DNA of 64,000 nt from an uncultured Actinomycetes bacterium (GTDB lineage Bacteria > Actinomycetota > UBA4738 > HRBIN12). Both the position numbers and the translations under genes were made by a program. Position 1 is the stretch's first letter; each line of letters starts with the position of its first letter. The notes under the pieces are model-generated. The model did no database searches and was not told the origin of the DNA. It worked only from the letters and a program-made list of their open reading frames with translations. The stretch lies in assembly GCA_963771385.1 (NCBI GenBank), contig CAVYTE010000017.1, forward strand, positions 6,096 to 70,095, in the 5' to 3' direction. Below, piece by piece: positions 34,233-63,061 of the stretch.

Positions 34233-36098
34233 ATGACTCCTGCACACGGATCCCACATCCTCAGCCGTCGCTCCGTGCTGAAGTTCGCCGGTGCGACGAG
34301 CGTCTCGCTGATCGCGGCGAGCTGCGTCGAAGATCGCTCGGCGCCAGCATCCGGCGGCGCCCCCCGCGGCGACCCCGTGCCGCTGGGCCCGGATCCCCCC
34401 GATCCGAACGACGTCGTGGCGATCACTGAGGAGGTGGTCCTGCGGACCGACCTCCGCGTTGCCGGGGTGGTCGTCGAGCCGAGCGGTCATCTCATCTTCG
34501 ACCCGAACGCATCCGTCACGCTGGAGAGCTCGGGCAACGTCGTCGTTCGTGGCCGCCTGACGGTGCGGGCGGACGATCCCGCGGTCATCCACCGCATCGT
34601 CTTCCCGCAGGTCGGCGAGGAAGCGTTCGTGGGCGGGGGGCTGTACGTGCTCGACTCCGATGTCGGGCTCTGGGTGGTCGATGACGGCAGCATGGACCTG
34701 GCCGGCGCGGCCCGACTGCCCTGGACCCTCGCCGTCGGCGATGTCCCCGCCGGCGTCGACGCCATCGAGGTGCGGGATGACCCGGCGGGTTGGCAGGTCG
34801 GGGACGAGATCGTCCTGACTCCCACCACGCCGCCCACGACCGAGGGCCACGCCGAGGCCTACGACGTGCGCACGATCGCGTCGATCGAGGGACGCAAGAT
34901 CGGGTTGGCCGACCCGGTGACCCACGATCACCCCGCGATCGCATCGGCCCGAGAGACCTTCCCGCCCGCGGAGGTGCTCAACCTCACCCGGAACGTCCAG
35001 ATCGAGGGGACGCCCGAGGGCCGCGCCCACGTCTTCATCCGGTCCAACAGCCCCCAGTCGATCCGCCACGTCCAGATCCGTCATGTCGGCCCCCGCCGGC
35101 CGGCAGCGGACGCGACGGAGGCCGTCCTCGGGCGCTACGGCCTCCACTTCCACATGTCGCACGAGGGCAGTCGCGGGAGCCTCGTCGAGGGCGTCGTGGT
35201 TCGTGAGTGTGGCAACCATGCCTTCGTGCCGCACATGAGCAACGGCATCACCGTTCGCGACTGCGTCGCGCACGACGTGACCGAGGACGCCTACTGGTGG
35301 GATCCGATCGACACGACCGACGACCTGCTGCTCGAGCGGTGCGTCGCCTCGCTGGTGCGAAGCGATCCACCTGGGCGAGGGTACGCCCTCTCCGGGTTCC
35401 TGCTCGGCACGGGACGGAGCAACGTCGCGCGGAACTGCATCGCCGTCGGCGTGCAGGGGAACAGCACGGCTGGCGGCTTCACGTGGCCGGCGCGCCCGGT
35501 CCTGGCCGGCAAGTACCCGTGGACGTTCGAGGACTGCGCCGCGCACAACAACCGCGTGCTCGGAGCCTACGTCTGGCAGAACACGATCACGGCCCAGGAG
35601 GTGGTCGGCTTCCTGGCGTACCAGAACGGGGGCTCCGGGATCCTCCACGGTGCGTACCGCAACCCCTACCTCTATCGAGACTGCGTCCTGTACGCGAACG
35701 GGGTGTCGGAGCTCGAGGTCCTCGCGCAAGCGAGCGAGGCGAGCATCGAGAGCGTCACGTTCGATCGACTCGTGTTCGACGGCAACGGATTCCACGACTT
35801 CGCGGTCACGACGGGCCATCACGCGGTCGAGGCCGTGAAGCCGGTCCGCTTCGAGGGGTGCGAGTTCCGCGGGTACCGCAGGGCGGGGTTCGCCGTCGAT
35901 CCGGCACGAGACGGCGGCCAGCCCGACTGGTTCGAACTCGTGGACTGCGTGTACGAGGGGAACGAGTTCTGGATCGACTCCGCGGCGCACCCGGATGCTC
36001 GGATCCAGGTATCGGACGCGGAGCACGGCAGCATCACGCTCCGCCGGTTCGACCAGCCGGGCACCCCGGTTCCCGCCTGGAACGCAAGCGTCAGCTGA
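34233..36098 (+). CDS. Tat-secreted G8-domain / right-handed beta-helix protein (candidate polysaccharide-degrading or -modifying enzyme)
   Basis: 621-aa intact ORF. It has a twin-arginine signal ('SRRSVLKFAGATSVSLIAASC'), a G8-like N-terminal region, 'LGRYGLHFHMS' and repeated beta-helix-like segments ('NGITVRDCVAHD', 'NVARNCIAVG'). Confidence 0.6.
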   Translation: MTPAHGSHILSRRSVLKFAGATSVSLIAASCVEDRSAPASGGAPRGDPVPLGPDPPDPNDVVAITEEVVLRTDLRVAGVVVEPSGHLIFDPNASVTLESSGNVVVRGRLTVRADDPAVIHRIVFPQVGEEAFVGGGLYVLDSDVGLWVVDDGSMDLAGAARLPWTLAVGDVPAGVDAIEVRDDPAGWQVGDEIVLTPTTPPTTEGHAEAYDVRTIASIEGRKIGLADPVTHDHPAIASARETFPPAEVLNLTRNVQIEGTPEGRAHVFIRSNSPQSIRHVQIRHVGPRRPAADATEAVLGRYGLHFHMSHEGSRGSLVEGVVVRECGNHAFVPHMSNGITVRDCVAHDVTEDAYWWDPIDTTDDLLLERCVASLVRSDPPGRGYALSGFLLGTGRSNVARNCIAVGVQGNSTAGGFTWPARPVLAGKYPWTFEDCAAHNNRVLGAYVWQNTITAQEVVGFLAYQNGGSGILHGAYRNPYLYRDCVLYANGVSELEVLAQASEASIESVTFDRLVFDGNGFHDFAVTTGHHAVEAVKPVRFEGCEFRGYRRAGFAVDPARDGGQPDWFELVDCVYEGNEFWIDSAAHPDARIQVSDAEHGSITLRRFDQPGTPVPAWNASVS

Positions 36099-37230
36099 CG
36101 GTGACGTCGGCGCCCGGAGCGGACACGCCGGCGATCGTCCGGTAGACCTCCGCGTAGCGCCGGGCGATCGTCGCGATGTCGAACCGCCCGTGGATCTGCT
36201 CCGTCGCGGCCCGGCCCATCGTGGCGCGGAGCGCCGGATCCGTCACGAGGCGGAGGAGGCCATCGGCCAGCGCCGCGCGGTCGCCGGGTGGCGCGAGGAG
36301 GCCGGTGACGCCGTCCTGCACGACCTCGGCGACCCCACCGACGTCGTACGACGCGACCGGCAGACCGGCGATTCCCGCCTCGATCAGCACCGCCGGCATC
36401 CCTTCGGTTCGGCTCGACAGCACGAGGACGTCCGACGCCGCGAGCAAGTTGCCGACGTCGTCTCGCGGACCGAGCAGCCGGATGCGCTCCGCGTGGCGGC
36501 CGGATCGCATCGCCGATCCCACTCGGGATCGCAGCGGTCCGTTCCCGGCCAGGACGAGGGACGCTCCCGGCACGACGTCGAGCACGCGTTCGGCCACGTC
36601 GAGCAGCGCGAGCGGATCCTTCTCCCACGTCAGCGCTCCGACCGCGAGCAGGATCGGCGCGTCGAGCTCCACCCCCAGGGAGGCGCGTACCGCATCGCGG
36701 GACCTGGAGGCCCGGACGCGATCGGGGTCGACGCCGTTCGGCACGACGAGGGTGCGATCGAGCCGGACGCCGTAGATCTCGACGGTCTCGCTCCGAACCA
36801 CCTCGGACACGCCGATCACGAGATCGGCCCTGCGGATCAACCATCCGTACACGTGGCGCCTGGCGGCGTCGGTCACCCACGGGTGCGCGGACCCGATCCT
36901 GCGATACACGACCGGGACCCCCGAACCGAGCGCCCCGGGGATCGAGTACTTCAGCGCCTCCCCGCCGTGCGCCTGCACGACCTGCGGGCTCCATCCCCGG
37001 ACCAGCCGGCGTAGCGACCGGGCCCGCGCGATCCCGAACCTGCCCGGCCGGCCGCCGCCCAGCGCGTGGGTCGGCGCGTCGAAGCTCGCGACGATGCCCT
37101 CCGTCGCTCGAAGGACGGCCACACGTTGCTCGAACCCCTCGCTCCGCAGTGCCCGGACGAGGTCCACGGCGAACAGTTCCGCTCCGCGACGTTCGTTCGT
37201 CGCGACGACGTGCAGCACGCGACCCGACAT
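36091..37230 (-). CDS. GT-B (GT4-type) glycosyltransferase
   Basis: 379 aa at the tail of ORF 36091..38328: 'VLHVVATNERRGAELF', 'GALTWEKDPLALL' and 'LVLSSRTEGMPAVLIEAGIAGLPVASYDVGGVAEVV'. Intact. Confidence 0.8.
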   Translation of the reverse strand: MSGRVLHVVATNERRGAELFAVDLVRALRSEGFEQRVAVLRATEGIVASFDAPTHALGGGRPGRFGIARARSLRRLVRGWSPQVVQAHGGEALKYSIPGALGSGVPVVYRRIGSAHPWVTDAARRHVYGWLIRRADLVIGVSEVVRSETVEIYGVRLDRTLVVPNGVDPDRVRASRSRDAVRASLGVELDAPILLAVGALTWEKDPLALLDVAERVLDVVPGASLVLAGNGPLRSRVGSAMRSGRHAERIRLLGPRDDVGNLLAASDVLVLSSRTEGMPAVLIEAGIAGLPVASYDVGGVAEVVQDGVTGLLAPPGDRAALADGLLRLVTDPALRATMGRAATEQIHGRFDIATIARRYAEVYRTIAGVSAPGADVTVS

Positions 37231-37232
37231 CC

Positions 37233-38402
37233 CTAGCCCCGCGACCGGTGTCCGCGCGACGACGTCAGCCAACGGACGGGAACGAGCCACCGATGGAGGT
37301 AGGAGGTGTGCCGCCCCCCATCCCTCGCCTTCACGAACTCGCGGTCGGGGAGCACGAGGGCCCGCACGTACGCGGCCTTTGCCCCGAGCCCGGGGATCGC
37401 TCGAAGCGTCGACCGCGCGGTCCCTCCGCGGCTCCGCCGGTCGGTGAGGTACGCGTCCAACGCGCGCTGCTCGCGTGGGTCGATCTTCGCCTGGATGATC
37501 GAATGGGCGAGCGGCGGCGGTTCCACGCCGAGCACCGTCCGGGCCTCCTCCAGCGAGCGCCGAACCACGGCTCGAAGCCGCCATCGGTCGGCGAGCACGT
37601 CCAACTCCGCCCAGTCCACGTCTCCGATCGCCGCGATCTGGGCGACGTCGCGCAGCGGGACCAGCCGGACCCGGCGGGAGCCGAGGACCGCGTGCATGCA
37701 CGCGTGCAGGAACGCCCTCGTGTCGTCGAGCCGCCGGAAGGCCCGACCGCCGATCGAGAGCTCCGTGGTGCCCTCGAAGAGTCCCTCCGGCTCCATCCAG
37801 AGCCCGAACGGGCCGAGCACCAGGGTCCGGTGGAGATCGATCTGGACGCCGTCGGGACCGATATGGGTCGCGGCCTTGCCGAACCGCTCGTCGAAGCCCC
37901 GGCGTGGTTCCGGGAGCCGGCGTCGGAACCCGGCCGTCGCGAGCGCGATGCAGGCCGCTTGCCAGTCCGCCGTGCTGACGAGCAGATCGAGGTCGCCGAA
38001 CGATCGCCACGACGGATCGGGATAGAACGCGCGCGCCACGGCCGGGCCCTTCAGGACCAGGAACTCGATCCCGGCGTCCTGGAGCGAAGGGGTCACCTCG
38101 AGGAGGCGGCGCTCGAGCTGCAGCGCGACCGTCATCGCTCCGCGGTGCCGCTCGAGCAGTTGATCCGCGTCCGCCTCTGCGAGCGCCAGGGCGCCGGCCT
38201 CGAGCGCCGCGACGCCCAGGCCGGTCAGCCGCTGCGACCCGAGCCAGGCCATCGTCGCCGGCCACGCGTTGGACGCAACGGCGCGTTCGCCCGCCACGCT
38301 CCCCGGGACACCGAAGGCGGCGATCCACCGGGCCGTCGAGAGCGGGTCGGGCGCGGGCTCTCGCGTCGATCCGTCCGCCGCCAGATGCGCGGCCTCCGTC
38401 AT
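37233..38402 (-). CDS. Nucleotidyltransferase-family protein (PF14907 / NTP_transf_5-like)
   Basis: 389-aa intact ORF with 'IEFLVLKGPAVARAFYPDPSWRSFGDLDLLV' and 'IDLHRTL'. It is translationally coupled to the PqqD gene upstream and lies 3 nt from the GT start downstream. Confidence 0.6.
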   Translation of the reverse strand: MTEAAHLAADGSTREPAPDPLSTARWIAAFGVPGSVAGERAVASNAWPATMAWLGSQRLTGLGVAALEAGALALAEADADQLLERHRGAMTVALQLERRLLEVTPSLQDAGIEFLVLKGPAVARAFYPDPSWRSFGDLDLLVSTADWQAACIALATAGFRRRLPEPRRGFDERFGKAATHIGPDGVQIDLHRTLVLGPFGLWMEPEGLFEGTTELSIGGRAFRRLDDTRAFLHACMHAVLGSRRVRLVPLRDVAQIAAIGDVDWAELDVLADRWRLRAVVRRSLEEARTVLGVEPPPLAHSIIQAKIDPREQRALDAYLTDRRSRGGTARSTLRAIPGLGAKAAYVRALVLPDREFVKARDGGRHTSYLHRWLVPVRWLTSSRGHRSRG

Positions 38403-38677
38403 CGGGCGACCCGTTCCACCCAGCCTCGCCGCTGCAGCTCGTCCAGGAACGCCTCGACGTCTGCCAGCACGGCCCGCTCCTGCTGCCCGAAGGCCTCCGC
38501 GACGAGCCGGGTGACCTCCCCCGGTGCCCTCGGTACGTCGAGGACGTGCCAGACGGCGGCCGCCGTGCCCGAGAGCCGGTCGATGTCGGCGTGCCCCGCG
38601 GCCGTCAACAGGACGTCGCCTCCGACGTTGCGGACGAGCATGTCGGGGGATCGCCGCAGCTGGATCCGATCGCTCAC
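38399..38677 (-). CDS. PqqD-family protein (RRE-type peptide chaperone), copy 1
   Basis: 92 aa from GTG 38677 (overlaps the upstream stop, GTGA): 'RRSPDMLVRNVGGDVLLTAAGHADIDRLSGTAAAVWHVLDVPRAPGEVTRLVAEAFG..VEAFLDELQRRGWV'. Confidence 0.65.
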   Translation of the reverse strand: MSDRIQLRRSPDMLVRNVGGDVLLTAAGHADIDRLSGTAAAVWHVLDVPRAPGEVTRLVAEAFGQQERAVLADVEAFLDELQRRGWVERVAR

Positions 38678-39984
38678 AGCACCACGACGTTCGAGCGATG
38701 GTCCGGGCCGAAGGCGTTCCGCGCGTCGAAGACCACGCTCGCGTGGTTGGCGATCCAGTCGAGATCGTACGCCGCGTGCGGCGTCAGGATCGCGACGCAA
38801 TCGGCGGCCTCGACGGCGGGCCTCGAGAGCTCGGTCCGCGTCACGTGCAGACCGTTCACGCTGATGGTGTCCACGAAGGGGTCGTGGTACTCGATCACCG
38901 CACCGCGCCGATGCAGCTGGGCCATCACCCGGAGGGCCGGCGATTCGCGAACGTCGCCGACGTCGGCCTTGTACGACACGCCGAGCACGAGGATGCGTGC
39001 GTCCTTCACGGCCTTGCCCGCGTCGTTCAGGGCCTCACCGATCCGCTGCGCGACGTAGGTCGGCATCTGCGCGTTGATGTCCTGCGCCTGCTCGAGGATC
39101 CGGAACTGGTGGCCGGCGTCGCGCCGGATCTGCCACGAGAGGTAGGTCGGGTCGAGCGGGATGCAGTGCCCACCCACGCCGGGGCCCGGGTAGAAGGTCA
39201 TGAACCCGAAGGGTTTGGTCGAGGCGGCGTCCACGACCTCCCACACGTCGATCCCCACCTCGTGACACAGGATCGCGATCTCGTTCACGAACGCGATGTT
39301 CACGTGGCGGAAGGTGTTCTCCAGCAGCTTGCTGAGCTCCGCGGTTCGGCACGACGAGACCGGAACGACCTTGTCGACGAGCTGGCCGTAGAACAGGACG
39401 GCCACACCGGTCGATTCGGCGGACACCCCACCGACGATCTTCGGCGTGTTCCGCAGGTCGAACTCGTCGTTGCCCGGGTCGATCCGCTCCGGGGAGTACG
39501 CGAGGAGGAAGTCGCGTCCACCCTGCAGACCCGAGCGCTCCAGGATCGGCATGACGAGCTCCTCGGTCGTACCCGGGTACGTCGTCGACTCCAGGACGAC
39601 GAGCCCGCCGGGCTTGAGATGCTCGGCGACGGCCTCGGTCGCCTGCTCGACGTGGGTGAGATCCGGGGCGTGGTCCCGGACCGGCGTCGGGACGCAGATC
39701 AGGACGATGTCACAGTCCGAGATCACCTCGGGATCGGTCGTGAACTCGACCCGGCCGCTCGCCATGCCGGCCCGGTAGAGCTCCTCCCGGACACCCGCGA
39801 CCGAGAGCGTCCCCTGACGGAGGTCGGAGAGGCGTGCGTCATCGACGTCGATCCCGTACACGCTGAATCCGGCCTCCGCCGCGGCGCACGACAGCGAGAG
39901 GCCGACGTACCCTTGTCCGATCACGCCGATCCTCGCTTTGCGCGCGAGGATCCGGCGCCGGAGCAGCGCGGTCGTCTTGATGAT
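38674..39984 (-). CDS. UDP-sugar / nucleotide-sugar 6-dehydrogenase (UDP-glucose/GDP-mannose dehydrogenase family)
   Basis: ORF 38674..39924 contains 'GQGYVGLSL', 'AYSPERIDPG' and 'PGPGVGGHCIPLDP'. GTG 39924 would truncate Rossmann strand beta-1 ('RIGVIG' is encoded just upstream). GGAGG at 39988..39992 is followed by ATC ATC (39984, 39981). The start is therefore uncertain. Confidence 0.8.
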   Translation of the reverse strand: MIKTTALLRRRILARKARIGVIGQGYVGLSLSCAAAEAGFSVYGIDVDDARLSDLRQGTLSVAGVREELYRAGMASGRVEFTTDPEVISDCDIVLICVPTPVRDHAPDLTHVEQATEAVAEHLKPGGLVVLESTTYPGTTEELVMPILERSGLQGGRDFLLAYSPERIDPGNDEFDLRNTPKIVGGVSAESTGVAVLFYGQLVDKVVPVSSCRTAELSKLLENTFRHVNIAFVNEIAILCHEVGIDVWEVVDAASTKPFGFMTFYPGPGVGGHCIPLDPTYLSWQIRRDAGHQFRILEQAQDINAQMPTYVAQRIGEALNDAGKAVKDARILVLGVSYKADVGDVRESPALRVMAQLHRRGAVIEYHDPFVDTISVNGLHVTRTELSRPAVEAADCVAILTPHAAYDLDWIANHASVVFDARNAFGPDHRSNVVVL

Positions 39985-40040
39985 GGTCCTCCTTCAACCA
40001 GGGGGCCGGCGTGGGCGCCGGCACCGGATGGATGCTTCCG

Positions 40041-47134: not shown

Positions 47135-47694
47135 GTGGGCTCCTTCACGAGTCCCGTCGTGACCGCGAGGTTGACCGCCGCGGTCTGGTTGGCGACGCCG
47201 AGCTTGGAGAACATCCTCGTCTTGTGCCGTTCCACGGTCTTCGCGCTGATCCCGAGTTGCCGCGCGACCTGCTTCGCCGCGAGACCACGGGCCACGAGAC
47301 CGAGGATCTGCCGCTCCCGGGTCGTCAGGCCCGCGCGCGGCTGTCCACCGGTGGGTAGCCCGGGCACGAGGGCCCGTGCGAGCACCGCGACCGGCGCCGC
47401 GGTCGAGACGCGGACGCCACCCTCGTCCACGTCGTCGGGATCGACGTCGTTCGAGGGACCGCCCAGCATGACCACCCGGACGCCCCGGCGTCGGAGCAGG
47501 ATCGCGGCGGCGTCCGCCCCGGGGAGGCGCTCGTCGAGCGCCACGGCGTCCGCCGTCTGACCCCGCGCCTCCGCCTCGGCCGCCGACGAGGCCACGCCCG
47601 CCGGCACGATCGGGGGGAACTGGGCGAGCGCGGCCGCGATGCCCTCGGCGACCATGCCCTCGCGGTGGGCCACGACGATCACGCGCGGCCTCAC
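47125..47694 (-). CDS. LuxR/FixJ-type transcriptional regulator with atypical receiver-like N-domain
   Basis: The HTH is 'LTTRERQILGLVARGLAAKQVARQLGISAKTVERHKTRMFSKLGV'. The N-terminal 'VIVVAHREG' lacks the acidic pair. Confidence 0.75.
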   Translation of the reverse strand: MRPRVIVVAHREGMVAEGIAAALAQFPPIVPAGVASSAAEAEARGQTADAVALDERLPGADAAAILLRRRGVRVVMLGGPSNDVDPDDVDEGGVRVSTAAPVAVLARALVPGLPTGGQPRAGLTTRERQILGLVARGLAAKQVARQLGISAKTVERHKTRMFSKLGVANQTAAVNLAVTTGLVKEPTWA

Positions 47695-49586
47695 GGGACC
47701 ACCACCGCGGCTCGAGGGAAGTCCTCGGCGAACGACTTGACGCGAGCCGCCAGCTCCGTCCGTTCGCCGGCGGTGCTCAGCGACTCGAGCTCACGCAGGG
47801 CGCCCCGCAACGAGGGGCGGTCGGGAACGGGTGGCCGCGACATCACGATCCCCGGGTGCGTCGTGGCGACCGGGTGCTCGTCGGGGTTCACGAGCTCCTC
47901 GATCAGCCGTTCCCCCGGTCGGGCGCCGACGAACTCGATCTCGACGTCGCGACCCGGGACCCGGCCCGAGAGCAGGATCAGCTTGCGTGCCAGACCCATG
48001 ATGTTCACGGGCTCACCCATCTCGAGGGTGAAGACCTCGCCGCCCTCGGACAGCGCGGCCGCCTGCAGGACGAGCTGGACCGACTCCTGCACGCTCATGA
48101 AGTACCTGGCCATGTCGGGAGCGGTGACCGTGACCGGGCCTCCCCGCCGGATCTGCTCGAGGAACGTCGGGATCGACGCTTCCGCGGCTCCCCAGGACGT
48201 TGCCGAACCGCACGGCGCAGAACACGCAGTCCATCCCGTGGATGCTCCGCACGATCTGCTCGGCGAACCACTTCGTCGCGCCCATGACGCTGACGGGGCG
48301 GACCGCCTTGTCCGTGGAGATCAGGATGAATCGCGTCACCCCGGCCGCGACGGCCGCATCGGCGACGTTGGCGGTTCCGATCACGTTCGTGAGCACCGCC
48401 TCTTCCGGGATGCGCTCCAGGACCGGCACGTGCTTGTGCGCTGCCGCGTGGAAGACGACCTCGGGGCGGTGGTGCATGAAGACGCCGAAGATCCGGTCGC
48501 GATCGCGGACGTCGGCGAGGACCTGTTCGATGACGACCGTGCCGTCGTCGACCTGCAGGACGACGTCGTGCAGGTGCGTCTCGTCGTGATCCAACACGAT
48601 GATCGAGGCGGGTTCGAACTCGGCGATCTGCCGCGCGATCTCGGAGCCGATCGAACCTCCCGCTCCCGTGACCAGGATCCGACGCCCACGGAGCGTGGCG
48701 GCGACCGACTCCAGGTCCGTCGTCACCTGCTGGCGGCCGAGGAGGTCCTCGATCTGGAGGTCGCGGATGTCCTTGGCCGAGATCTTCCCGTCGACGACCT
48801 CCTGGACGGTCGGGAGGACGCGCAGCATGACGTTGGCCTCCTCGCACACGGCGGCCACCTCGCGAACCTGCTCCTCGGTGGCGGAGGGGATCGCCAGCAG
48901 CACCTCCTCGACGTCGAGCCGGTCGACGAGGGCAGGGATCGCCGAGCGGTCGCCCGAGCACCGGCACCTCGTGGAGGGCGAGGCCGATCTTCCGTCGGAT
49001 CGTCGTCGACGAACCCGACCGGCTCCAACTCGACGGAGGGGTTCTCCAGGATGTCCTTCAGGACCATCGACCCGGCGGCACCGGCGCCGACGAGCAGGAC
49101 CCGGGGCCGGGGGTTCGGGCCGACGGAACGCCGGCGCAACGCGAACAACCGGCTCTGGAAGCGGATCGCGCCGAACCCGATGAGCGACAGCACCGAACCC
49201 ATGATCACGACCGAACGGGGCAATGGTTGCTCCCACAGCCAACCGACGGCCGCGTTGACGCCGATCACGAAACCGCCGCCGACGAGGGCGGCGATCGCCA
49301 CCCGGCGCGCCTCCTGGACGCTCGCGTACCGCCACATCTGCCCGTAGAGCCCGTAGACATGGTTCGCGGTCAGGTGGATGAGCCCGACGACGGGGATGAA
49401 CAGCCAGAAGTAGGTCCAGTACGTGTCCGGAACGCGTCCGTCGAACCGCAGGACGAGGGGACCCAGGTAGGCCGGCAACACCACGGCGAGATCGAGGAGC
49501 GCGAGCGGGACGTTGCGGCGAACACGCCGAGACACCGACGTCGCGAGCCCGTCGTGCCTGCCCCGCCGCCCGTTCCCGATCGCCAT
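47691..49586 (-). CDS. CapD/WbpM/PglF-type membrane-anchored nucleotide-sugar 4,6-dehydratase; two frame breaks
   Basis: The N-terminal TM region lies in ORF 48723..49640 from ATG 49586 ('LALLDLAVVLPAYLGPLVL', 'VLLVGAGAAGSMV'). The core lies in ORF 48013..49650 ('ILVTGAGGSIGSEI', 'VFHAAAHKHVP', 'ISTDKAVRPVSVMGATK'). The C-terminus lies in ORF 47691..48113 ('MARYFMSVQESVQLVLQAA'). Breaks lie at ~48975 and ~48175. Confidence 0.8.
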
Positions 49587-49722
49587 GCCGAACCTCCCCG
49601 GTTGCTTCGAAGACCCGCAGCATAGGCACGCGTCCTGCACCCCTCATCAATCACGGTGCGTAACTTCGCTACGCCGAACCGCGTAAGGGGATGCCCGAGC
49701 CCGACTCCGGGGGACATCTACG

Positions 49723-50190
49723 ATGAACGGCGGATGCGCCATGCGGCCCAGGCCCCGAGACTCAGGCTGCATGAACGACCTCGAGGGAAGCGATCGGTAC
49801 GAGCGCTCCCTCCTGGAGGACGACGGTGCAACTGCCGACACGCCGACCGCGATCGAGATGCGTACGGACGTCCCCCGGACGCTCGTGACCGTACCCGACG
49901 GGTACCGTCCACGACGCCGTGAAGGCGTGCTCGACATCGACATGGGCGACGGTTTCATCCTGTTCGACGAGTCGTCGAGCCTCGTCCACCACCTGAACCC
50001 CTCCGCGACGTTGATCTGGCAGCTGTGCGACGGCACGGGAACCGTCGCGGACCTCGCCGGGGACATCGCCGCCGAGTACGGGCTCGACGAACCGACCATC
50101 CGGAGCCAGGTCGCCGAGGTGATCGCCGAGTTCGATGCACTCGAACTCGTCCAGGATGAACGGAACCTCTTCTCGGAGCGAGATCGATGA
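49723..50190 (+). CDS. PqqD-family protein (RRE-type peptide chaperone), copy 2
   Basis: Contains 'VLDIDMGDGFILFDESSSLVHHLNPSATLIWQLCDGTGTVADLAGDIAAEYGLDEPTIRSQVAEVIAEFDALELV'. The start could also be ATG 49771. Confidence 0.7.
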   Translation: MNGGCAMRPRPRDSGCMNDLEGSDRYERSLLEDDGATADTPTAIEMRTDVPRTLVTVPDGYRPRRREGVLDIDMGDGFILFDESSSLVHHLNPSATLIWQLCDGTGTVADLAGDIAAEYGLDEPTIRSQVAEVIAEFDALELVQDERNLFSERDR

Positions 50191-50289
50191 CCTACGCCCC
50201 ATGTCGTAGGGCGACCGAAGGCATCGCGAACCGACGCGATCGACGTGGCGACTCGCTGGGACGCGGACCCGACCCGATGCTCCGGTATC

Positions 50290-50305
50290 TACGCACACGT
50301 GCGTA
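50290..50305. promoter_or_regulatory. 7-2-7 inverted repeat TACGCAC-AC-GTGCGTA, candidate NarL/LuxR-family operator upstream of the Cys-rich ORF
   Basis: The arms are perfect 7-bp repeats, ~85 nt upstream of ATG 50390. A TATCAT -10-like hexamer lies at 50329..50334. The same heptamer (GTGCGTA 49656..49662) plus TACGCCG (49670..49676) lies in the capD/pqqD-2 divergent intergenic region. Confidence 0.35.
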
Positions 50306-50389
50306 TCGCCGAGCGTCAACGCAGTCCGTATCATGGCCCCGCGGCACGACGCCTGTGCGACGTGGCCTCCGGGCGGAAGGACCCACTGG

Positions 50390-50794
50390 ATGAGCAACCG
50401 TGATCGTGAGGATCTGAACCGGCGCGACTTCCTTCGGAAGGCTGCGCTGACCACCGCAGCCGCCGCGTGGGCGGCCCCGGTGATCCAGACGGTGGCGGCG
50501 ACCCCGGCATTCGCTCAGGCCCAGGGAACCCCGCCTCCGACCTCCGATGAGCCCTGCGGCCACTCCACCGGCCTGAACGGTGGCTGCATGGGAGCCTGCG
50601 CCAGTGTGTGCGGGGGCAACCAGTGCGGCGGTCAGTCGAACGGTCGGAACCAGGTGGCCGGCCCCTGCACGACGTACTGCGCGCCCGGCCAGGGCAACGA
50701 CAACCCGTGCGCCAACCCGGGTCTGTGCGAGCCGGGGAACTTCGTGTGTAGCCCCGACCAGCAGGGCGTCGCGACCTACACCGGCCCGCTGTAG
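50390..50794 (+). CDS. Small secreted Cys-rich protein with twin-arginine signal (candidate substrate/precursor of the PqqD/HprK-like module)
   Basis: 134 aa starting at aa 20 of ORF 50333..50794. The signal is 'MSNRDREDLNRRDFLRKAALTTAAAAWAAPVIQTVAATPAFAQA'. The 90-aa mature part has 10 Cys, including 'CMGACASVC', and is rich in Gly/Asn/Pro. GGAAGGA lies upstream of the ATG. Confidence 0.6.
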   Translation: MSNRDREDLNRRDFLRKAALTTAAAAWAAPVIQTVAATPAFAQAQGTPPPTSDEPCGHSTGLNGGCMGACASVCGGNQCGGQSNGRNQVAGPCTTYCAPGQGNDNPCANPGLCEPGNFVCSPDQQGVATYTGPL

Positions 50795-50814
50795 ACCGCA
50801 CTCCTTCCCCGACC

Positions 50815-51639
50815 TCAGGTCAGGCGTTCCGCGAGCAAGGCTGCCCGTTCCCTCGGCGTGCCGCCCCGCAGCTCGAAGGCCTCCGCCTCCTGCGCAACCC
50901 GCGTGAGGAGCACGACGCCGCGCTCCTGGTACCGGTAGAGGTTGAAACAGTTCGCCGCCATCCGACGGACGGCGTCGGCTCGCGGGACGGGCTCCAGACG
51001 CGGGGGGCCCGATCGCTCCATCCCCACGAAGACGAGCCATGATGGCGGTGCCGCCTCGGCGGCGGCCGCGCCCAGGTCCTCCGGTCGCACGTATCGCTGC
51101 GAGAGCGAAACACCGCTCTCCGTCCGGTCGACGAGCCGGTCGCGCAGGCCGTCGAAGTGCTCGAGGGCGTCATCGTCCAGGCTGATCCGCTTCGGGAAGG
51201 GGTAGGCCCTCCCGGTGACCGGATCGAGCGCGCCGAGCTCGTCGGACAGGTACCCGAACCCGAGCTCCAGCAGTGCGACCACGAGCGAGGACTTCCCCGC
51301 GTCCATCTCGGCCGGCAGCACGAGCGCTCGGCCGTCACGGGCGACGGTCCCGGCGTGCAGGAACAGGAAGTCTCGCGACCCCTTCGGGACGGTCGCGTGC
51401 AGATCCCAGACGGCGTGCCCGAGCAGACGCTCCAGCTGCGCGTGCCGGTAGCGGAGCAGTCCCCCGCGGTAGAGCGACCGGGGCGGCGGCGTGACGTCCT
51501 CGTCCTCTTCGTCCACGAACAGATCGACGAACACGGCGTGGTGGTCGCCGCCCGGACGCCGGAACGGCGCGAGGTGCCAGGCGAGCGCGGCCGAGAACCG
51601 CTCGTCCACGGAACGGACCGTGTACGAGGTGGAGAGCAT
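50815..51639 (-). CDS. HPr-kinase-related kinase (HprK-related kinase A/B type) with intact P-loop
   Basis: 274-aa ORF with 'FLHAGTVARDGRALVLPAEMDAGKSSLVVALLELGFGYLSDE'. A conserved coding-like extension (GWVATDHYR) lies upstream of the ATG, up to an in-frame TGA at 51685..51687. Confidence 0.65.
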   Translation of the reverse strand: MLSTSYTVRSVDERFSAALAWHLAPFRRPGGDHHAVFVDLFVDEEDEDVTPPPRSLYRGGLLRYRHAQLERLLGHAVWDLHATVPKGSRDFLFLHAGTVARDGRALVLPAEMDAGKSSLVVALLELGFGYLSDELGALDPVTGRAYPFPKRISLDDDALEHFDGLRDRLVDRTESGVSLSQRYVRPEDLGAAAAEAAPPSWLVFVGMERSGPPRLEPVPRADAVRRMAANCFNLYRYQERGVVLLTRVAQEAEAFELRGGTPRERAALLAERLT

Positions 51640-51718
51640 CCGATAGTGGTCCGTGGCGACCCAACCTGGGTCGAATTCGTCGCCTCAGCCCCCCGATGGA
51701 TGCCGATGCGCGCGTGGC

Positions 51719-52531
51719 TCATCGGCCAGCCGACCCACCTCCCTCCGGAACCGTCTGCTCGAGCAGGAGCCGGGCAGCATCGGGGAGCGATCCGACGACG
51801 AGTTCGGCGACGCGGGCGTTCCGGAGCACGTCGCGGAACACGAGCAACGCTCGGTCCGCCCAGATGTGCAGGTTGAGACCCGCCTGCGTGAACCGGAAGA
51901 GCGCCTCGGCCGCCCCGATAGGCCGGAGCTCCGACGGACTCCCCGGTTCGAACGTCGGGAAGATCACCCCGCCCGGATCCGCCGGCTCGGCCAGGCGTCC
52001 CCCGAGCTCGTCCAGACGCACCGGTCGCCGAGGCTCCCTCGCGCCGTCCTCGCGCGCTCGCCGGCGGCTCGGCGACGACGAACGGCCCAGCTCCGGGAAG
52101 AGCGCGAGATCGCTCTCCGCGAGGAGCAACGGGATCGACGAGCCGTGCACCCGGCGCATGACCGGGTCGAGGTTCACGATCTCGTCGCCGAGGTAGCCGG
52201 CGCCGGATCGCACGAGGAGCGCCACCAACGCGGGGAGATGCGGCGCGGGGACCGAGGGCAGGATCAGCGCACGGCCGTCCACCACGACCCCGCCCGCCCG
52301 GATGCGGATGAACTCGTTCGAGGAGCGCGTCGCGATGTCACGGACGCCGGAGATCAACCGTCCCGCCATCTCGTCCGGCGCGTACCCCTCGTAGATCTTC
52401 AGACCGCCGACGAACAACCGCTGGCGCGCGCGGACCTGCTTGCCGCCGGCGAGCGTGCGCTGGATCCCGCAGTCGGCGGAGAAGCGCAGCTCGTCGGACG
52501 CGTCCGGGTCCAGGAACCGCTGCAAGGGCAC
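51719..52531 (-). CDS. HPr-kinase-related paralogue with degenerate P-loop (probable pseudokinase partner)
   Basis: 270-aa ORF with 'IRIRAGGVVVDGRALILPSVPAPHLPALVALLVRSGAGYLGDE', aligning with the neighbouring kinase but without GKS. Homology to its paralogue continues ~29 codons upstream of GTG 52531 ('GWVASDRYSVEGTEFAVRATDPAF'), so the true start is unresolved (up to 52639). Confidence 0.6.
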   Translation of the reverse strand: MPLQRFLDPDASDELRFSADCGIQRTLAGGKQVRARQRLFVGGLKIYEGYAPDEMAGRLISGVRDIATRSSNEFIRIRAGGVVVDGRALILPSVPAPHLPALVALLVRSGAGYLGDEIVNLDPVMRRVHGSSIPLLLAESDLALFPELGRSSSPSRRRAREDGAREPRRPVRLDELGGRLAEPADPGGVIFPTFEPGSPSELRPIGAAEALFRFTQAGLNLHIWADRALLVFRDVLRNARVAELVVGSLPDAARLLLEQTVPEGGGSAGR

Positions 52532-52717
52532 GCGAAGCAGTTCGAGGAACGCGGGGTCCGTCGCACGTACCGCGAACTCCGTGCCCTCGACCGAATACCG
52601 ATCGCTGGCAACCCAACCTAGGCGCTCGAGGGTTTCCTCTCAGTGGTTGCGTGCGCGCGTCTGCGGCGTCACAGCTCCCCTCCTCGCTGCATGCGTTCCT
52701 GCTGGTAGGCGGGCGCG

Positions 52718-52732
52718 TACTATAACCAAGTG
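52718..52732 (+). promoter_or_regulatory. -10-like TACTAT placed 6 nt before the GTG start: probable leaderless transcript for the LuxR-type gene
   Basis: 'gcgTACTATaaccaaGTG': the hexamer is at 52718..52723 and the GTG at 52730. There is no SD and no convincing -35. Confidence 0.3.
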
Positions 52733-53419
52733 GCTCCTCGGGTCCTCATCGTCGATCCAGAGCCGTTCTTCAGCGAGTCATTGGCCACCGCGCTCGGTCT
52801 CGACGATCGGATCCAGGTCGTCGGGTGGACCACCGACGAACGAGCGGCGGTCCAGATGGCCACCTCCCTCGCTCCCGACATCGTCCTCTCGGGCTCCGAC
52901 GCCGCTCCGGAAACGGTGGCTCGCAAGGTCCGCCGGTTGCGAGGCCACGCGAAGGTCGTCGTCCTCACCCGTCGACCGGTCGGCAACCTGCTGCTCGAGG
53001 CGGCCACCGCGGGGGCGACGGGTGTCCTCGGGCACGACCTGGGAGTCTCCGACCTCGTCCCGCTGCTCGCCGGGTCGATCGACGGCCGGTTCGTGGTCGA
53101 ACCGAGCCGGCTGGGCGACAACCTCCGGCAGGCCGCAGCTGGGCGTGCACGCGAAGGTCCGGAGAGCGACGGGCTGGAACGACTGACCGACCGGGAGCGC
53201 GAGGTCCTGCATCTGCTCGCTGCCGGCCTGGACAATGCCGCGATCGCGAAACGGCTGCATCTGTCCGCGCACACGATCCGGACCCACGTGGGCAACATCC
53301 TTCGCAAGCTCGAGGTGCACAGCAGGGCGCAGGCGGCTCGCGTCGCCCTCGCCGCGGACGACCCGAGCCGCGCCGTCGGCGTCTTCCACATCCGTGGTCC
53401 GGAGCTCCCTCCCCGGTGA
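52730..53419 (+). CDS. LuxR-family regulator with degenerate receiver domain
   Basis: The HTH is 'LTDREREVLHLLAAGLDNAAIAKRLHLSAHTIRTHVGNILRKLEV'. The N-terminus 'VLIVDPEPFFSE' has only one acidic pocket residue. Confidence 0.75.
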   Translation: MAPRVLIVDPEPFFSESLATALGLDDRIQVVGWTTDERAAVQMATSLAPDIVLSGSDAAPETVARKVRRLRGHAKVVVLTRRPVGNLLLEAATAGATGVLGHDLGVSDLVPLLAGSIDGRFVVEPSRLGDNLRQAAAGRAREGPESDGLERLTDREREVLHLLAAGLDNAAIAKRLHLSAHTIRTHVGNILRKLEVHSRAQAARVALAADDPSRAVGVFHIRGPELPPR

Positions 53420-54033
53420 GCGCCGACGGACGGACCGTCCTCCTCGTCTGCTCGGACCGACTGTTCCGCGAGTCCGCGACCGCCTACCTGGAACGGCACG
53501 GATGGACGGTCCTGCCGGCCGCCGACGAGCTGCAGGCGCTCGTGACGATCTCGCGATCGGTTCCCGGTGCGATGCTCGTGCTCGAGGGCCTCGACCGACA
53601 CCGGCCCGGGGCCCTCGTCCGGCAGATCCACCGGCGGTGGCCGCTCGTCTCGGTCACGGTCCTGGGCAGCATCCCCGTGGATGGAGCCGAGGTCCTTCCA
53701 CGAACGGCGACCGCAACCGAGGTCCTCGAGGGGCTCGAGCGGACCGCCGGCCCGAGCGTACCCAGCCCCGGATCGGCACCGGACGGACTCGACCGCGAGG
53801 GGATCGCGCTCCTGCGGACACTGACGCGACGCGAACGGCGGATCCTGTCCGACCTCGTGGACGGCCTCACGAAGGCCGAGATCGCGGATCGTCTGGGTGT
53901 GAGCGAGCACACCGTGCGGACGCATCAGCAGAACCTCCATCGCAAGCTCGGGGTCCACAGCCGGCTCGAGCTCATGCGGCTCGCATCCGCGCACGGACTG
54001 CTGCGTTCGAAGGATCTCGACCGGGTCGTGTGA
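53416..54033 (+). CDS. LuxR-family regulator with degenerate receiver-like domain
   Basis: 205 aa from GTG 53416 (GTGA overlap). The HTH is 'LTRRERRILSDLVDGLTKAEIADRLGVSEHTVRTHQQNLHRKLGV'. The N-terminus is 'VLLVCSDRLFRE'. Confidence 0.7.
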   Translation: MSADGRTVLLVCSDRLFRESATAYLERHGWTVLPAADELQALVTISRSVPGAMLVLEGLDRHRPGALVRQIHRRWPLVSVTVLGSIPVDGAEVLPRTATATEVLEGLERTAGPSVPSPGSAPDGLDREGIALLRTLTRRERRILSDLVDGLTKAEIADRLGVSEHTVRTHQQNLHRKLGVHSRLELMRLASAHGLLRSKDLDRVV

Positions 54034-57384: not shown

Positions 57385-57525
57385 GTGTCGAACACGGAGC
57401 GCGTACTTGTCAATCGGGCTTACGTCGAGGGCACTACGAGGCGCGCCGTATGAGGACTACGCGGAGGACAGGATTCCGCCGAGCCCCCGGATGCCGCATG
57501 ATGGTCCTAGCCCCCCCAGTCGCCG

Positions 57526-58029
57526 ATGCGAGGTGTGATCGTGGGCAAGCATGTCACGCGTGACCTGGGGAGAGCCCTCCGGCAAGCACGCGAGGAGCGC
57601 GGGCTCAGCCTCCGAGAGGCGAGCCGGCGATCGCAGGGCAGGTTCACCCCCTCCGGGATCGCCGGGTACGAGCGCGGAGAGCGCCGGATCTCGGTCGAAC
57701 GCATGTGCGCGCTGGCGGAGGTCTACGGGGTCCGTCCGGAACGGCTGCTCGCGGCCGGCCTCCACCCGGCCGGAGCGGCGCCGGTCGAGGTCGATCTGTC
57801 CTCGCTGGAGCGGCTCCCGCCCGAGCTCCGGACCCTCCTCGCCGGCTACATCGAAGAAGTGCTCACGATGCGCGGACCCGCGGACCCGGACCGGATCTCG
57901 TTGCGGTCGGGTGATCTGGAGATCCTGGCGGGATCGGCGAGCGGCTCGGTCGCGGACCTCTACCGCCGGATGCGCGATGCGCTCGCCGACAACGACGGGG
58001 AAACAGAACCGCAGCCGGCCTCTTCCTGA
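57526..58029 (+). CDS. XRE-family helix-turn-helix transcriptional regulator
   Basis: Contains 'LGRALRQAREERGLSLREASRRSQGRFTPSGIAGYERGERRISVERMCALAEVYGV'. Confidence 0.7.
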   Translation: MRGVIVGKHVTRDLGRALRQAREERGLSLREASRRSQGRFTPSGIAGYERGERRISVERMCALAEVYGVRPERLLAAGLHPAGAAPVEVDLSSLERLPPELRTLLAGYIEEVLTMRGPADPDRISLRSGDLEILAGSASGSVADLYRRMRDALADNDGETEPQPASS

Positions 58030-61122: not shown

Positions 61123-62061
61123 CTACATCCCCCGCATGAAGGCGATCGTCTCGCGCAGACCGTCCTCGAGATGGGTCCATGGCCGCCACCCGAGGACGCT
61201 CGATGCGAGCTCGGGGTCGAGGGCACTCCGACGCAGATCCCCCGCCCGTGGGGGCCCGTGGGCCGGTTGCCCGGTGAACCCCGCATGCTCCGCGAGCATC
61301 CGGTACAGCCCGTTCACCGAGGTCTCGAGGCCGGTACCGACGTTCACCAGACGGCCGTCCCCGACGCCCGCGGCGAGCGCGAACGCATGCACGGTGTCAT
61401 CCACGAACACGTAGTCGCGGGTCTGGTCCCCATCTCCGAAGATCGTCGGCGCCTCGCCCGCCAGCATCTTCGAGGTGAAGATCGCGATCACGCCCGCCTC
61501 GCCGTTCGGGTCCTGGCGTGGCCCGTACACGTTCGCGAGCGCGAGCGCCGTGTAGGGGAGCCCGCGGAACGTCTCGTAGAACGCGAGGTAGTCGAGGGCC
61601 ACCTTCTTCGTGATCCCGTAGGGAGAGGAGGGCCGCCCCGACGCCGTCTCCTTCACGGGCAAGCGGCGTGGCTCGCCGTACAGGGTGCCTCCGGACGCGG
61701 CGAACACGACCTTGCGGACCCCGGTCCTCGCGCAGCACTCGAGGATGTTCAGCAGGCCCATGACGTTCACCTGCGCGTCGCGGATCGGCGCCTCCACCGA
61801 CGTCGAGACGCTCGCCTGCGCGGCCAGGTGCATCACGACCTCGGGACGATGACGCTCGAACAGCGACAGCAGGCCCTCGGCGCCGATGTCCATGTTGAAG
61901 AAGGTGAACTCCGCGCCGTAGCCGCGCGCCTCGGACAGGTTCGCGATCCGGCCGGTGGACAGGTCGTCGACGGCCACCACGCGATGGCCCTCGGCCAGCA
62001 GGCGATCGCACAGGTGCGAACCGATGAACCCCGCCCCGCCGGTGACCAGCGTCGTCGTCAT
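61123..62061 (-). CDS. NAD-dependent nucleotide-sugar epimerase (GalE-like SDR)
   Basis: 312 aa at the tail of ORF 61123..63012: 'TLVTGGAGFIGSHL', 'ASGGTLYG', 'PYGITKKVALDY' and 'ALANVYGPRQ'. Confidence 0.8.
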   Translation of the reverse strand: MTTTLVTGGAGFIGSHLCDRLLAEGHRVVAVDDLSTGRIANLSEARGYGAEFTFFNMDIGAEGLLSLFERHRPEVVMHLAAQASVSTSVEAPIRDAQVNVMGLLNILECCARTGVRKVVFAASGGTLYGEPRRLPVKETASGRPSSPYGITKKVALDYLAFYETFRGLPYTALALANVYGPRQDPNGEAGVIAIFTSKMLAGEAPTIFGDGDQTRDYVFVDDTVHAFALAAGVGDGRLVNVGTGLETSVNGLYRMLAEHAGFTGQPAHGPPRAGDLRRSALDPELASSVLGWRPWTHLEDGLRETIAFMRGM

Positions 62062-63061
62062 GCGAGCACCATCGACGGGTCGGCTCCGACGCCGAGCGAG
62101 GTCCGCTCGCCCGCGGGCCAGGCGGGAGGCGCCGGCGATCGCGATCATCGCGCCATTGTCGGTGCAGAGATCGATCGATGGGAACAGGACCCGGATCCCG
62201 GCCCGCTCGCCGGCGTCCAGCATCCGCTCTCGGAGCCGCGTGTTCGCGACGACGCCGCCGCCCAGCAGGACCGTCTGCACGCGACACTCCGTCGCCGCGG
62301 TCATCGTCTTGGAGACCTGCACGTCCACGATCGCCTCCTGGAACGACGCCGCGAGGTCGGCGGGGTCGATCTCCCGCCCCGCGGCGCGCTCGTTCTTCAC
62401 GTGCCGAAGGACCGCGGTCTTCAGTCCCGAGAGCGAGAAGTCCAGATCTCCGGACGACGCCATCGAGCGCGGGAACGCGATCGCGGCGGGGTCGCCGGTC
62501 CGGGCGAGGGCGTCGAGCGCCGGCCCGCCCGGGAACCCGAGCCCGAGGAACCGCGCGATCTTGTCGAAGGCCTCGCCCGCGGCGTCGTCCACGGTCTGGC
62601 CCAGGAGCTCGTAGCGATGCCACGCCGGCATGTGCACGAGCATCGTGTGCCCGCCGGAGACCACCAGGCAGACCGCAGGCGGCAGGTTGGAGCCATGCTC
62701 GATCGTGTTCGCGGCGATGTGGCCCTCGAGATGGTTCACACCGACGAACGGCGCCCCCGTCGACAGGGCGATCGCCTTCGCCGCGGCCACCCCGACGAGC
62801 AGCGCCCCGATCAGCCCCGGGCCGACGGTGACCGAGACCCCGTCCAGGTCGTCGAAACCGCACGCAGCGATCCGCAGCGCCTCGTCGAGCAGCGGCGTGA
62901 GCGCCTCCACGTGCGCCCGGCTCGCGAGCTCGGGGACCACGCCTCCGAACCGCTCGTGGAGATCGACCTGGCTCGCGATCAGGTTCGACAGGACGCGGCC
63001 GTCCTCCACCACCGCGACGCCGGTCTCGTCGCAGGACGTCTCGATGCCCGAGGACCTTCAC
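62058..63061 (-). CDS. tsaD: tRNA N6-adenosine threonylcarbamoyltransferase TsaD; two frame breaks (assembly errors likely)
   Basis: ORF 61123..63012 N-terminal half contains 'VPELASRAHVE', 'GPGLIGALLVG', 'GVNHLEGH' and 'VSGGHT'. The true N-terminus 'MKVLG|IETSCDETGVAVVEDG' needs 1 nt removed at the run 63047..63049. The true C-terminus 'GERTSLGVGADPSMVLA*' (stop 62058..62060, ATGA overlap with the next gene) needs 1 nt removed at 62110..62112. Confidence 0.9.

Follow-up and report, generated by a model that had tools for sequence, protein, structure and literature searches.

A twin-arginine signal peptide as the probable leader of an LPP-like peptide maturation module in a polysaccharide locus of an uncultured actinomycete

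The closest described counterparts of the locus reported here are the linear polyphosphorylated peptide (LPP) clusters of Bacillota capsule loci, which encode a precursor (LppA), an HprK-like kinase (LppK), a recognition element, or RRE (LppB), for peptides made on the ribosome and modified after translation (RiPPs), a SipW-like peptidase (LppS), an ABC pump (LppD) and an NTP-transferase (LppN) (Popov et al., Nat Commun 2026, PMC13381572). LppB binds the leader at Y-16xxP-13, LppS cuts after position -1 and LppK polyphosphorylates Ser+3; the products are made without a cyclase, the class is stated as restricted to Bacillota, and twin-arginine translocation (Tat) is not mentioned (PMC13381572). 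HprK-like kinases also phosphorylate a Ser of lasso precursors, as in the case of paeninodin PadeK, and in the pseudomycoidin pair PsmK/PsmN the nucleotidyltransferase adds one or more hexoses onto the phosphate (PMC8498205). Here we describe a module in a stretch of 64,000 nucleotides, hereafter the window (GenBank assembly GCA_963771385.1, contig CAVYTE010000017.1, positions 6,096 to 70,095, forward strand), from an uncultured Actinomycetes bacterium. The module comprises a PqqD-family protein (PqqD1), a small Cys-rich protein with a twin-arginine signal, and two HprK-like paralogues (KinA and KinB), with a second group of genes about 11 kb away. By analogy with LPP, we consider it probable that these genes form a ribosomal peptide or mini-protein maturation system in which a Tat signal peptide serves as the leader. 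The enzymology already has the 2026 LPP precedent; new here are the hybrid Tat/RRE leader, the pseudokinase partner, the Cys-rich cores, the hosts outside the Bacillota, and the fact that no dedicated peptidase or pump was found.

All the genes of the module that had been read from the sequence alone are present in the window as open reading frames (ORFs), at a G+C content of about 70% that holds throughout. PqqD1 (49771..50190, plus strand) is a discrete RRE protein of 139 aa, with its start taken from the gene call on a public contig and its frame open from 49723; it matches Pfam PqqD with 54.1 bits (E 2e-14). The small ORF, the putative precursor, follows 199 nt downstream (50390..50794, plus strand) and encodes 134 aa, with the motif NRRDFLRK near its start and 10 Cys after AFA. 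Both kinase-like ORFs converge on it from the minus strand: KinA (50815..51639, 274 aa, carrying LPAEMDAGKSSLV) and KinB (51719..52531, 270 aa, carrying LPSVPAPHLPALV, within a stop-to-stop frame that extends to 52639). An independent public contig (Logan, 9.6 kb) has identical gene calls of 139, 134, 274 and 270 aa, an agreement far beyond chance, and an exact copy of the precursor (P0121) lies on a 245,532-bp NCBI/ENA contig. A search of the window against Rfam gave no match, and a promoter and terminator scan of 49.3-52.9 kb found none.

The first line of evidence comes from the N-terminus of the small protein. Residues 1-42 (50390..50515, plus strand) contain the twin-arginine stretch N10-R-R-D-F-L-R-K, with the arginines at R11-R12, then W27-A-A-P30-V-I and a predicted signal-peptidase site P39-A-F-A42. 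The protein passes the NCBIfam model TAT_signal_seq (TIGR01409) with 20.9 bits against a cut-off of 16.7, and it has the sequence features of a Tat substrate, namely NRRDFLRK, a moderately hydrophobic h-region and PAFA. Relative to the predicted cut A42|Q43, W27 stands at -16 and P30 at -13; thus what appears to be an RRE-binding [Y/W]xxP motif lies inside the Tat-type signal in the LPP register, and this is the key feature that the sequence-only reading missed. Across 44 sequences of the family, the N-terminus is much better conserved than the remainder of the protein. The motif [YWF]xxPx[LIVMFA] occurs in 43 of them, the aromatic residue lies 16 (in a few, 15) residues ahead of the P-[AS]-[FY]-A site, and nearly all carry a Ser or Thr no more than six residues past it, within G-[TS]-P at about +5 in Actinomycetota and within K-A-G-S, with Ser at +4, in Proteobacteria. 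In a profile search of the whole library, 810 cluster representatives reached E<=1e-3, of which 80 reached E<=1e-10; among the best 144, the motif is kept in 136, the spacing of 15-16 residues in 132 and the early Ser/Thr in 128 of 133, while the number of core Cys ranges from 0 to 20 and is mostly even. Judged from these alignments, a conserved leader joined to a hypervariable core is the pattern of a RiPP precursor.

The same N-terminus could, instead, be a RiPP leader only, without functioning as a Tat signal: its RR/hydrophobic segment would be what the RRE and the enzymes recognize, some other protease would remove it, and the product would leave by a different route or stay inside the cell. 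Just 13 of 36 family members reach TAT_signal_seq at E<=0.01, signal peptides seldom have a Pro, such as P-13 here, midway through the h-region, and a bound RRE would mask that region. Nevertheless, we regard this explanation as rather unlikely, given that S/T-R-R-x-F-L-K is closely matched (the strict form RRxF[LIVM][KRT][KRT] in 28 of the 44 leaders, [RK]R in all 44), that the h-regions are mildly hydrophobic (mean hydropathy for the family 1.06), Ala-rich and end in P-A-F/Y-A, that neither the scanned window ORFs nor related loci yielded a dedicated peptidase or exporter, and that the even numbers of core Cys suggest disulfides formed outside the cytoplasm.

The core that follows the leader (residues 43-134 plus the stop codon; 50516..50794, plus strand) has 92 aa and 10 Cys, and an alignment of 45 homologues marks G46-T47-P48, C56-x-H58-S59 and GC66MGAC70 as its conserved features. 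AlphaFold2 (AF2) models residues 61-134 of the precursor at pLDDT 75-92, and a Foldseek search of the model against the PDB gave no fold match. NCBIfam has no family for these small peptides apart from its Tat-signal models.

A second line of evidence concerns the partner of the leader. A profile of the PqqD proteins of these cassettes matches the lasso and LPP RREs TfuB1 (3e-13), TbiB1 (1e-12), LppB 9x8z (5e-10) and PbaB1 9x90 (7e-9). The Q of 'IRSQVAEVI' in PqqD1 falls in the same alignment column as D70 of LppB, which hydrogen-bonds the leader Tyr, and Q79 of PbaB1, which hydrogen-bonds the leader Trp (PMC13381572). When PqqD and leader sequences are paired, this pocket column holds D in 11 cases, E in 2 and Q in none with Y-leaders, as against D in 4, E in 3 and Q in 15 with W-leaders. 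The pocket residue thus covaries with the leader aromatic, D going with Tyr and mostly Q with Trp, and, at the level of the alignments, this W/Q versus Y/D pattern agrees with the crystallographic determinants. PqqD1 also matches the lasso PqqD model NF033530 (E 3e-7), and kinases of the HprK type as well as nucleotidyltransferases are familiar tailoring enzymes of lasso peptides, as might be expected from a remnant or split lasso cluster whose cyclase and B2 protease are encoded elsewhere. That origin is very improbable: neither enzyme turned up in the scanned window ORFs or in the gene tables for related loci, the cores, at 65-116 aa and 8-16 Cys, lie well beyond lasso size, and the leader has no Thr at -2. 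A lasso cluster was rejected on the first two of these counts.

As for the kinases, KinA and KinB match NCBIfam HprK_rel_A (E 2.3e-28 and 1.2e-11, respectively), while the local copy of Pfam gave no match for either; some kinase homologues carry the newer PF27840 'ScmC'. Searched by sequence, KinA has hardly any match in the PDB (HprK 3tqf, E 0.05), so that a fold search was needed. The AF2 model of KinA is confident (pLDDT 91.7, pTM 0.89), and Foldseek relates it to ATP-dependent PEP carboxykinases (E 9e-5) and to HprK/P 3tqf (4e-3), plus 1knx and 1kkl; PEP carboxykinase and the catalytic domain of HprK/P belong to one fold superfamily. As anticipated from the sequence, the P-loop is intact in the first kinase and replaced in the second. 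In KinA it reads G115-K-S, and H95, this loop and D133-E134 are invariant or almost so among homologues, GK[ST] being invariant in all. KinB aligns with KinA without gaps and retains the YLGDE motif, but the His is replaced by Arg and the P-loop by S-V-P-A-P-H-L-P. It is found in 16 of 20 Actinomycetota loci, and two of the loci without it have no space for it. Its replacement motif, LPSxPxPHLPxL, is conserved in KinB orthologues down to about 47% identity, except in the more divergent L020, which argues for a pseudokinase maintained by selection. On this sequence evidence KinB is a predicted conserved pseudokinase with a degenerate active site, and it may act as a partner or scaffold of KinA.

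A third line of evidence is that the gene set is conserved. With a profile built from KinA homologues, 47 loci were retrieved, all from metagenome-assembled genomes (MAGs), and were mapped by tblastn and hidden Markov models (HMMs); the closest relatives of the window are, without exception, MAGs of uncultured Actinomycetota. Of the 47 loci, 42 have a PqqD and 40 a leader-bearing small ORF, as detected by the leader HMM, two of the seven that lack the latter being truncated contigs. In 19 of 20 Actinomycetota loci the small ORF stands directly after KinA and converges with it, and in the twentieth the contig ends at KinA. Starting from the precursor, all three Actinomycetota homologues on other contigs adjoin a kinase pair (274 aa and 268-280 aa) and a LuxR pair. 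The sequence-only reading had expected a small Tat/Cys-rich ORF beside such kinase sets, and for Actinomycetota both surveys bear this out. PqqD and the nucleotidyltransferase of the second arm (NTP5, see below), on the other hand, change position among Actinomycetota loci, and in L006, L008 and L009 any detected PqqD is about 4 kb away; that the gene set survives such rearrangement speaks for a functional link among its members. PqqD, small ORF and kinase follow one another in this order, often with NTP5 adjacent, in Burkholderiales, Binatia, Acidimicrobiia, Rokubacteria, Thermoanaerobaculia and Planctomycetes. Two or more leader ORFs, or an additional, divergent kinase copy, occur in some MAG loci (L011 17193..19782; L031 with three leader ORFs and two kinases; L022 with two leader ORFs), which suggests multiple precursors or duplicated systems per genome. 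In the Planctomycetes locus L025 (8118..9737, plus strand) an open frame of 540 aa that immediately precedes the kinase has the PqqD domain at its C-terminus, and this frame may be an RRE fused to another enzyme domain.

A proteobacterial type of the leader was also found, in 203 small 'hypothetical' proteins with the consensus SRREFVKKAAYVAPAILTLxAAPxYAKAGSxK and short Lys/Pro-rich tails; the query of that search was a composite of the L047 N-terminus and the rest of L036, and not a natural sequence. Among eight proteobacterial contexts, three (L047, L052 and L054) include the cassette, two of them as operons with gaps of roughly 20-160 nt. In the other five, neither a PqqD nor a kinase is called within 5 kb, and the orphan SRREFVKKAAYVAPAILTL-type peptides of this clade may either be served in trans or carry a leader that is chiefly a secretion signal there. 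In L049, L050 and L051 (at about 5001..6813), where likewise neither gene is called within 5 kb, orphan peptides with Y-type leaders of the form MDKE..RR(D/E)FIKKAAYVAPAILTLAVAPAYAKAGS.. are found 400-1000 nt upstream of proteins that weakly match a PEP-CTERM/exosortase-sorting domain.

Such orphans bring up the explanation that the genes are neighbours only, the small ORF encoding an ordinary Tat-secreted, disulfide-rich or metal-binding envelope protein while PqqD, the kinases and the nucleotidyltransferase serve another substrate, be it a peptide, a regulator or a glycan intermediate. Besides the five contexts without a cassette, it can draw on the public records, which name the small proteins merely 'twin-arginine translocation signal domain-containing protein', and on the core, which folds confidently alone in AF2. 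We nonetheless deem it unlikely: the precursor adjoins the kinase in 19 of 20 and 3 of 3 Actinomycetota loci of the two surveys while other genes move; PqqD, peptide and kinase are operonic in other phyla at the same short gaps; the leader has the RRE-binding motif in the LPP register, with a covarying RRE residue; and the cassette showed no further conserved ORF of small size.

The second arm of the proposed system is a string of four minus-strand genes. The sequence-only reading had placed a second PqqD and a PF14907-like nucleotidyltransferase at 37233..38677; both are real, as two overlapping genes, and a GT4-family glycosyltransferase directly after the nucleotidyltransferase had been overlooked. 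The string begins with a UDP-glucose/GDP-mannose dehydrogenase (UGDH; 38674..39993) with the N, central and C domains of Pfam UDPG_MGDP_dh. Its stop codon is overlapped, as GTGA, by the GTG start of PqqD2 (38399..38677), a second discrete RRE of 92 aa (Pfam PqqD 39.8 bits; local PqqD HMM E 4e-13). The stop of PqqD2 overlaps in turn, as ATGA, with the ATG of NTP5 (37233..38402), a 389-aa protein of the nucleotidyltransferase fold (NTP_transf_5, PF14907; Pfam E 3.8e-33) for which no PDB or NCBIfam relative was found. GT4 (36091..37230; Glycos_transf_1 1.7e-31, Glyco_transf_4 1.2e-19) starts 2 nt past the NTP5 stop. The order UGDH-PqqD recurs in L014, L015 and L022, with NTP5 next in L014 and L015; NTP5 adjoins the precursor in L006, L008 and L009 and adjoins PqqD in L011, L012, L014 and L015; and GT4 is just downstream of NTP5 also in L008, L009 and L015. 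In L056 (1595..3802, minus strand) a single protein of 735 aa combines NTP_transf_5 (PF14907) and Glycos_transf_1 beside a Cys-rich precursor with a Tat leader, so that the fusion joins two genes that are neighbours in the window.

This arrangement could also mean that the small protein is a carrier or primer, on which phosphorylation by KinA and sugar or sugar-phosphate transfer by NTP5 and GT4 build or anchor a glycan, the module being part of polysaccharide assembly. It lies in polysaccharide loci of several phyla with CapD, a Wzz/ParA-type kinase, UGDH and GT4; NTP5 is operonic or fused with GT4 and follows UGDH; and LPP clusters, too, are found in capsule loci (PMC13381572). However, many proteobacterial cassettes consist of PqqD, peptide and kinase alone, without glycan genes nearby, and a carrier role would extend the maturation reading rather than replace it; as a separate explanation we give it little probability.

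The sequence-only reading had likened the module to the HPr-rel-A system of NCBIfam, for which the curated cut-offs are 200 bits for TIGR04352 HprK_rel_A, 200 bits for TIGR04355 HprK_rel_B and 35 bits for TIGR04353 PqqD_rel_X. The HMM comparison that it proposed was borne out in part: HprK_rel_A, PqqD and PF14907 match, but HprK_rel_B has no match to either kinase ORF at E<=0.1, PqqD2 has none to PqqD_rel_X, and the cut-offs are missed by KinA (99.1 bits), by KinB (44.2 bits) and, for PqqD_rel_X, by PqqD1 (33.8 bits). Strict membership in HPr-rel-A is therefore not supported. A bona fide HPr-rel-A locus, L027 of Casimicrobiaceae, has a kinase at 335 bits and a PqqD at 47.1 bits, and it represents a sister clade. 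The two have in common a cassette with the same kinase/PqqD superfamily, often with PF14907; they differ in that KinB is a paralogue of KinA and not HprK_rel_B, and in that the L027-type leader has no Y/W. Directly upstream of the L027 PqqD lies an ORF of 170-185 aa with an RR-leader that starts RRRLL...LPSVLTLSSGA, and leader-bearing proteins thus seem to be general to the superfamily, a feature that NCBIfam does not describe. Such ORFs, spotted by eye, occur in L027 (8705..9295), L029 (8693..9322) and L032 (8697..9326), all on the plus strand; comparing these three loci for small conserved ORFs gave too noisy a result, as the genomes are close. Their start RRRLL..LP(S/T)V(L/Y)TLSSGA is followed by a Cys-containing domain of about 140 aa, they are only about 43% conserved against about 85% for the flanking genes, and they have no NCBIfam model. 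They are candidate substrates of the classical HPr-rel-A system.

No Asn-synthetase-like cyclase, transglutaminase-like protease, radical SAM enzyme, S26 peptidase, ABC exporter or MNIO was detected in the scanned window ORFs; a few of the window ORFs have no Pfam match, which makes the absence of these enzymes strong, not absolute. The sequence-only reading had likewise seen no lasso cyclase, leader protease, radical SAM or LanB/LanM enzyme in the window. Its conclusion that the module belongs to no known RiPP class does not hold, given that LPP combines an HprK-like kinase, a discrete RRE and an NTP-transferase, without a cyclase, in capsule loci (PMC13381572).

On the basis of synteny and the leader motif, the best-supported reading is the one already suggested from the sequence, in which the small protein is the substrate and is phosphorylated and then decorated with the help of the nucleotidyltransferase. 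In the proposed scheme, PqqD1 would bind W27-A-A-P30-V-I of the 134-aa precursor in the cytoplasm and present it to KinA, with KinB as a probably non-catalytic partner. KinA would phosphorylate, once or repeatedly, a Ser or Thr at the start of the core, T47 of G-T-P being the likeliest site and S59 an alternative. PqqD2 would bring the same leader to NTP5 and GT4, which would add one or more sugars onto the phosphate, possibly a uronic acid supplied via UGDH. The modified protein would be exported by Tat and cut after A42 (AFA|Q) by the general signal peptidase I, the two standing in for the SipW-like peptidase and ABC pump of LPP. The product would be a phosphorylated or phosphoglycosylated envelope or matrix protein of 92 residues and 10 Cys, whose disulfides form extracellularly and which remains associated with the polysaccharide layer. 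The scheme as a whole is more secure than its details, namely which site and which sugar are used and what KinB does.

Several points weigh against this maturation scheme. The usual cargo of Tat is folded, and a 10-Cys protein that needs external disulfides is an odd client; Tat targeting could also face competition from an RRE on the h-region. The choice of phosphosite and sugar and the part given to KinB are guesses. The main counter-evidence is given by the five of eight proteobacterial leader peptides without a nearby cassette, from which the leader could be mainly a secretion signal. The covariation of the pocket residue largely tracks phylogeny, so that few independent events underlie it, and the PqqDs of the four W-leaders that pair with D are 1.8-2.6 kb off. 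The scores below the HPr-rel-A cut-offs count on the same side, and LppN was inactive when tested heterologously (PMC13381572).

Beyond the window, the surveys may outline a natural class of peptides and mini-proteins in which one leader is both Tat signal and RRE ligand, the RRE acts as a chaperone of the Tat signal during phosphorylation and phosphoglycosylation, and general Tat and signal peptidase I replace the peptidase and pump of LPP. Such a class would span Actinomycetota, Burkholderiales, Rokubacteria, Binatia, Planctomycetes and others, and through it capsule or biofilm matrices would receive peptides that are phosphoglycosylated and rich in disulfides or in Lys/Pro; we put this forward tentatively, as a possibility that falls somewhat short of probable. 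If true, LPP chemistry, reported in Bacillota only, would reach at least six other phyla, and a missing substrate would be supplied for HPr-rel-A-like cassettes, which have long been uncharacterized. It would also constitute a new solution to RiPP export and leader removal, with a single segment of 42 residues providing Tat targeting, RRE binding and signal-peptidase cleavage, and would link RiPP biosynthesis with Tat quality control. The placement in polysaccharide loci and the NTP5-GT4 fusion point to a connection between peptide and glycan in capsule or biofilm biology, a matter that the LPP authors left open.

The remainder of the window is a large polysaccharide locus with a flippase, a sulfatase, a DegT aminotransferase, GT4s, deacetylases, CapD, a Wzz/ParA-type kinase, an AMP-ligase and an acyl-CoA dehydrogenase; the minus-strand frames of 27.4-32.0 kb hold only GT4 and deacetylase. 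LuxR-type regulators and a histidine kinase adjoin KinB. Two regulators of the LuxR/GerE type (52730..53419 and 53416..54033, plus strand; Pfam GerE 7.9e-22 and 7.8e-19) are divergent from KinB, and such a pair also flanks the kinases in most Actinomycetota loci; these conserved neighbours are candidate regulators of the module. Beside the histidine kinase/LuxR cluster that flanks the module lies an HTH_3/HTH_31 regulator with a sub-threshold BldD-like C-terminal domain (57511..58029, plus strand). A CapD/WbpM-like gene (47691..49640, minus strand) is split over three frames (48723..49640, 48013..~48900 and 47691..48113), its orthologue in L057 being one intact gene of 630 aa, and in L001 the frames of KinB, of the Wzz/ParA-type gene and of the AMP-ligase are broken in a similar way; such breaks suggest indel errors of long-read MAGs, or pseudogenes. 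Between rimI-like and groES-groEL genes, an unbroken frame of 644 aa (61123..63057, minus strand) joins TsaD (Kae1; residues 22-306) and a complete NAD-dependent epimerase/dehydratase (337-637), either as an unusual fusion or through a lost stop codon or frameshift. An alpha/beta-hydrolase domain and a Trp-halogenase/FAD-binding domain share one frame at 8339..10636 (plus strand), and a second AMP-ligase paralogue lies at 13222..14658 (plus strand), where a GC3-based gene call had chosen the opposite strand.

With respect to other known systems, bufferins, which are MNIO-modified, Cys-containing RiPPs with a Sec signal peptide (PMC11626156), are similar in that a small Cys-containing precursor has a general-secretion signal peptide, cut at a signal-peptidase site, and no dedicated exporter. 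They differ in the use of Sec instead of Tat, in enzymes of the MNIO and DUF2063 types that form thiooxazoles in place of a kinase and a nucleotidyltransferase, and in a signal peptide that modification does not require, whereas that of the window precursor contains the RRE motif. A bufferin-like system was rejected, as no MNIO (DUF692) or DUF2063 domain appeared in any Pfam scan of the window. TorD and DmsD are cytoplasmic chaperones that bind Tat signal peptides and hold the substrate until its maturation is complete. They share with the present proposal the concept of a Tat-signal binder, but their fold is unrelated, the module having a PqqD/RRE winged helix coupled to covalent modification. 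A literature search combining twin-arginine with RiPP or RRE returned only engineered systems or unrelated papers. The phosphorylated lasso peptides resemble the module in their HPr-kinase homologue, their leader-bearing precursor and a PqqD-type B1 protein that binds a YxxP or WxxP leader; here, however, the target is likely near the N-terminus of a long core and not a C-terminal Ser, and export would proceed by Tat, not by an ABC transporter.

The comparison with LPP is the closest one. In both systems an HprK-like kinase, a discrete RRE and an NTP-transferase share one locus (LppN is likened by its description, PF14907 being the family of the window protein), and in both a conserved leader precedes a hypervariable core of 35-200 aa in a capsule or polysaccharide locus without a cyclase. 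They also share the [Y/W]xxP motif, with Y/W at -16 and P at -13 from a cut of the signal-peptidase type, and a Ser (here Ser/Thr) near the start of the core. On the other hand, the window leader is a twin-arginine signal peptide that ends in AxA, and only [W/Y]xxPx[IV], the register and the nearby Ser/Thr are present from YxxPxVLxHQxIxFETxxS, the rest of which is absent. Neither the SipW-like LppS (an S26 peptidase) nor the MsbA-like LppD (an ABC exporter) was found in the scanned window ORFs and related-locus gene tables. The window has, in turn, two kinase paralogues of which one appears catalytically dead, two RREs, a GT4 coupled or fused to the nucleotidyltransferase and cores that are Cys-rich mini-proteins, and its hosts are Actinomycetota and other non-Bacillota phyla. 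All in all, by analogy the module would work like LPP, yet it stands outside the LPP clade as defined.

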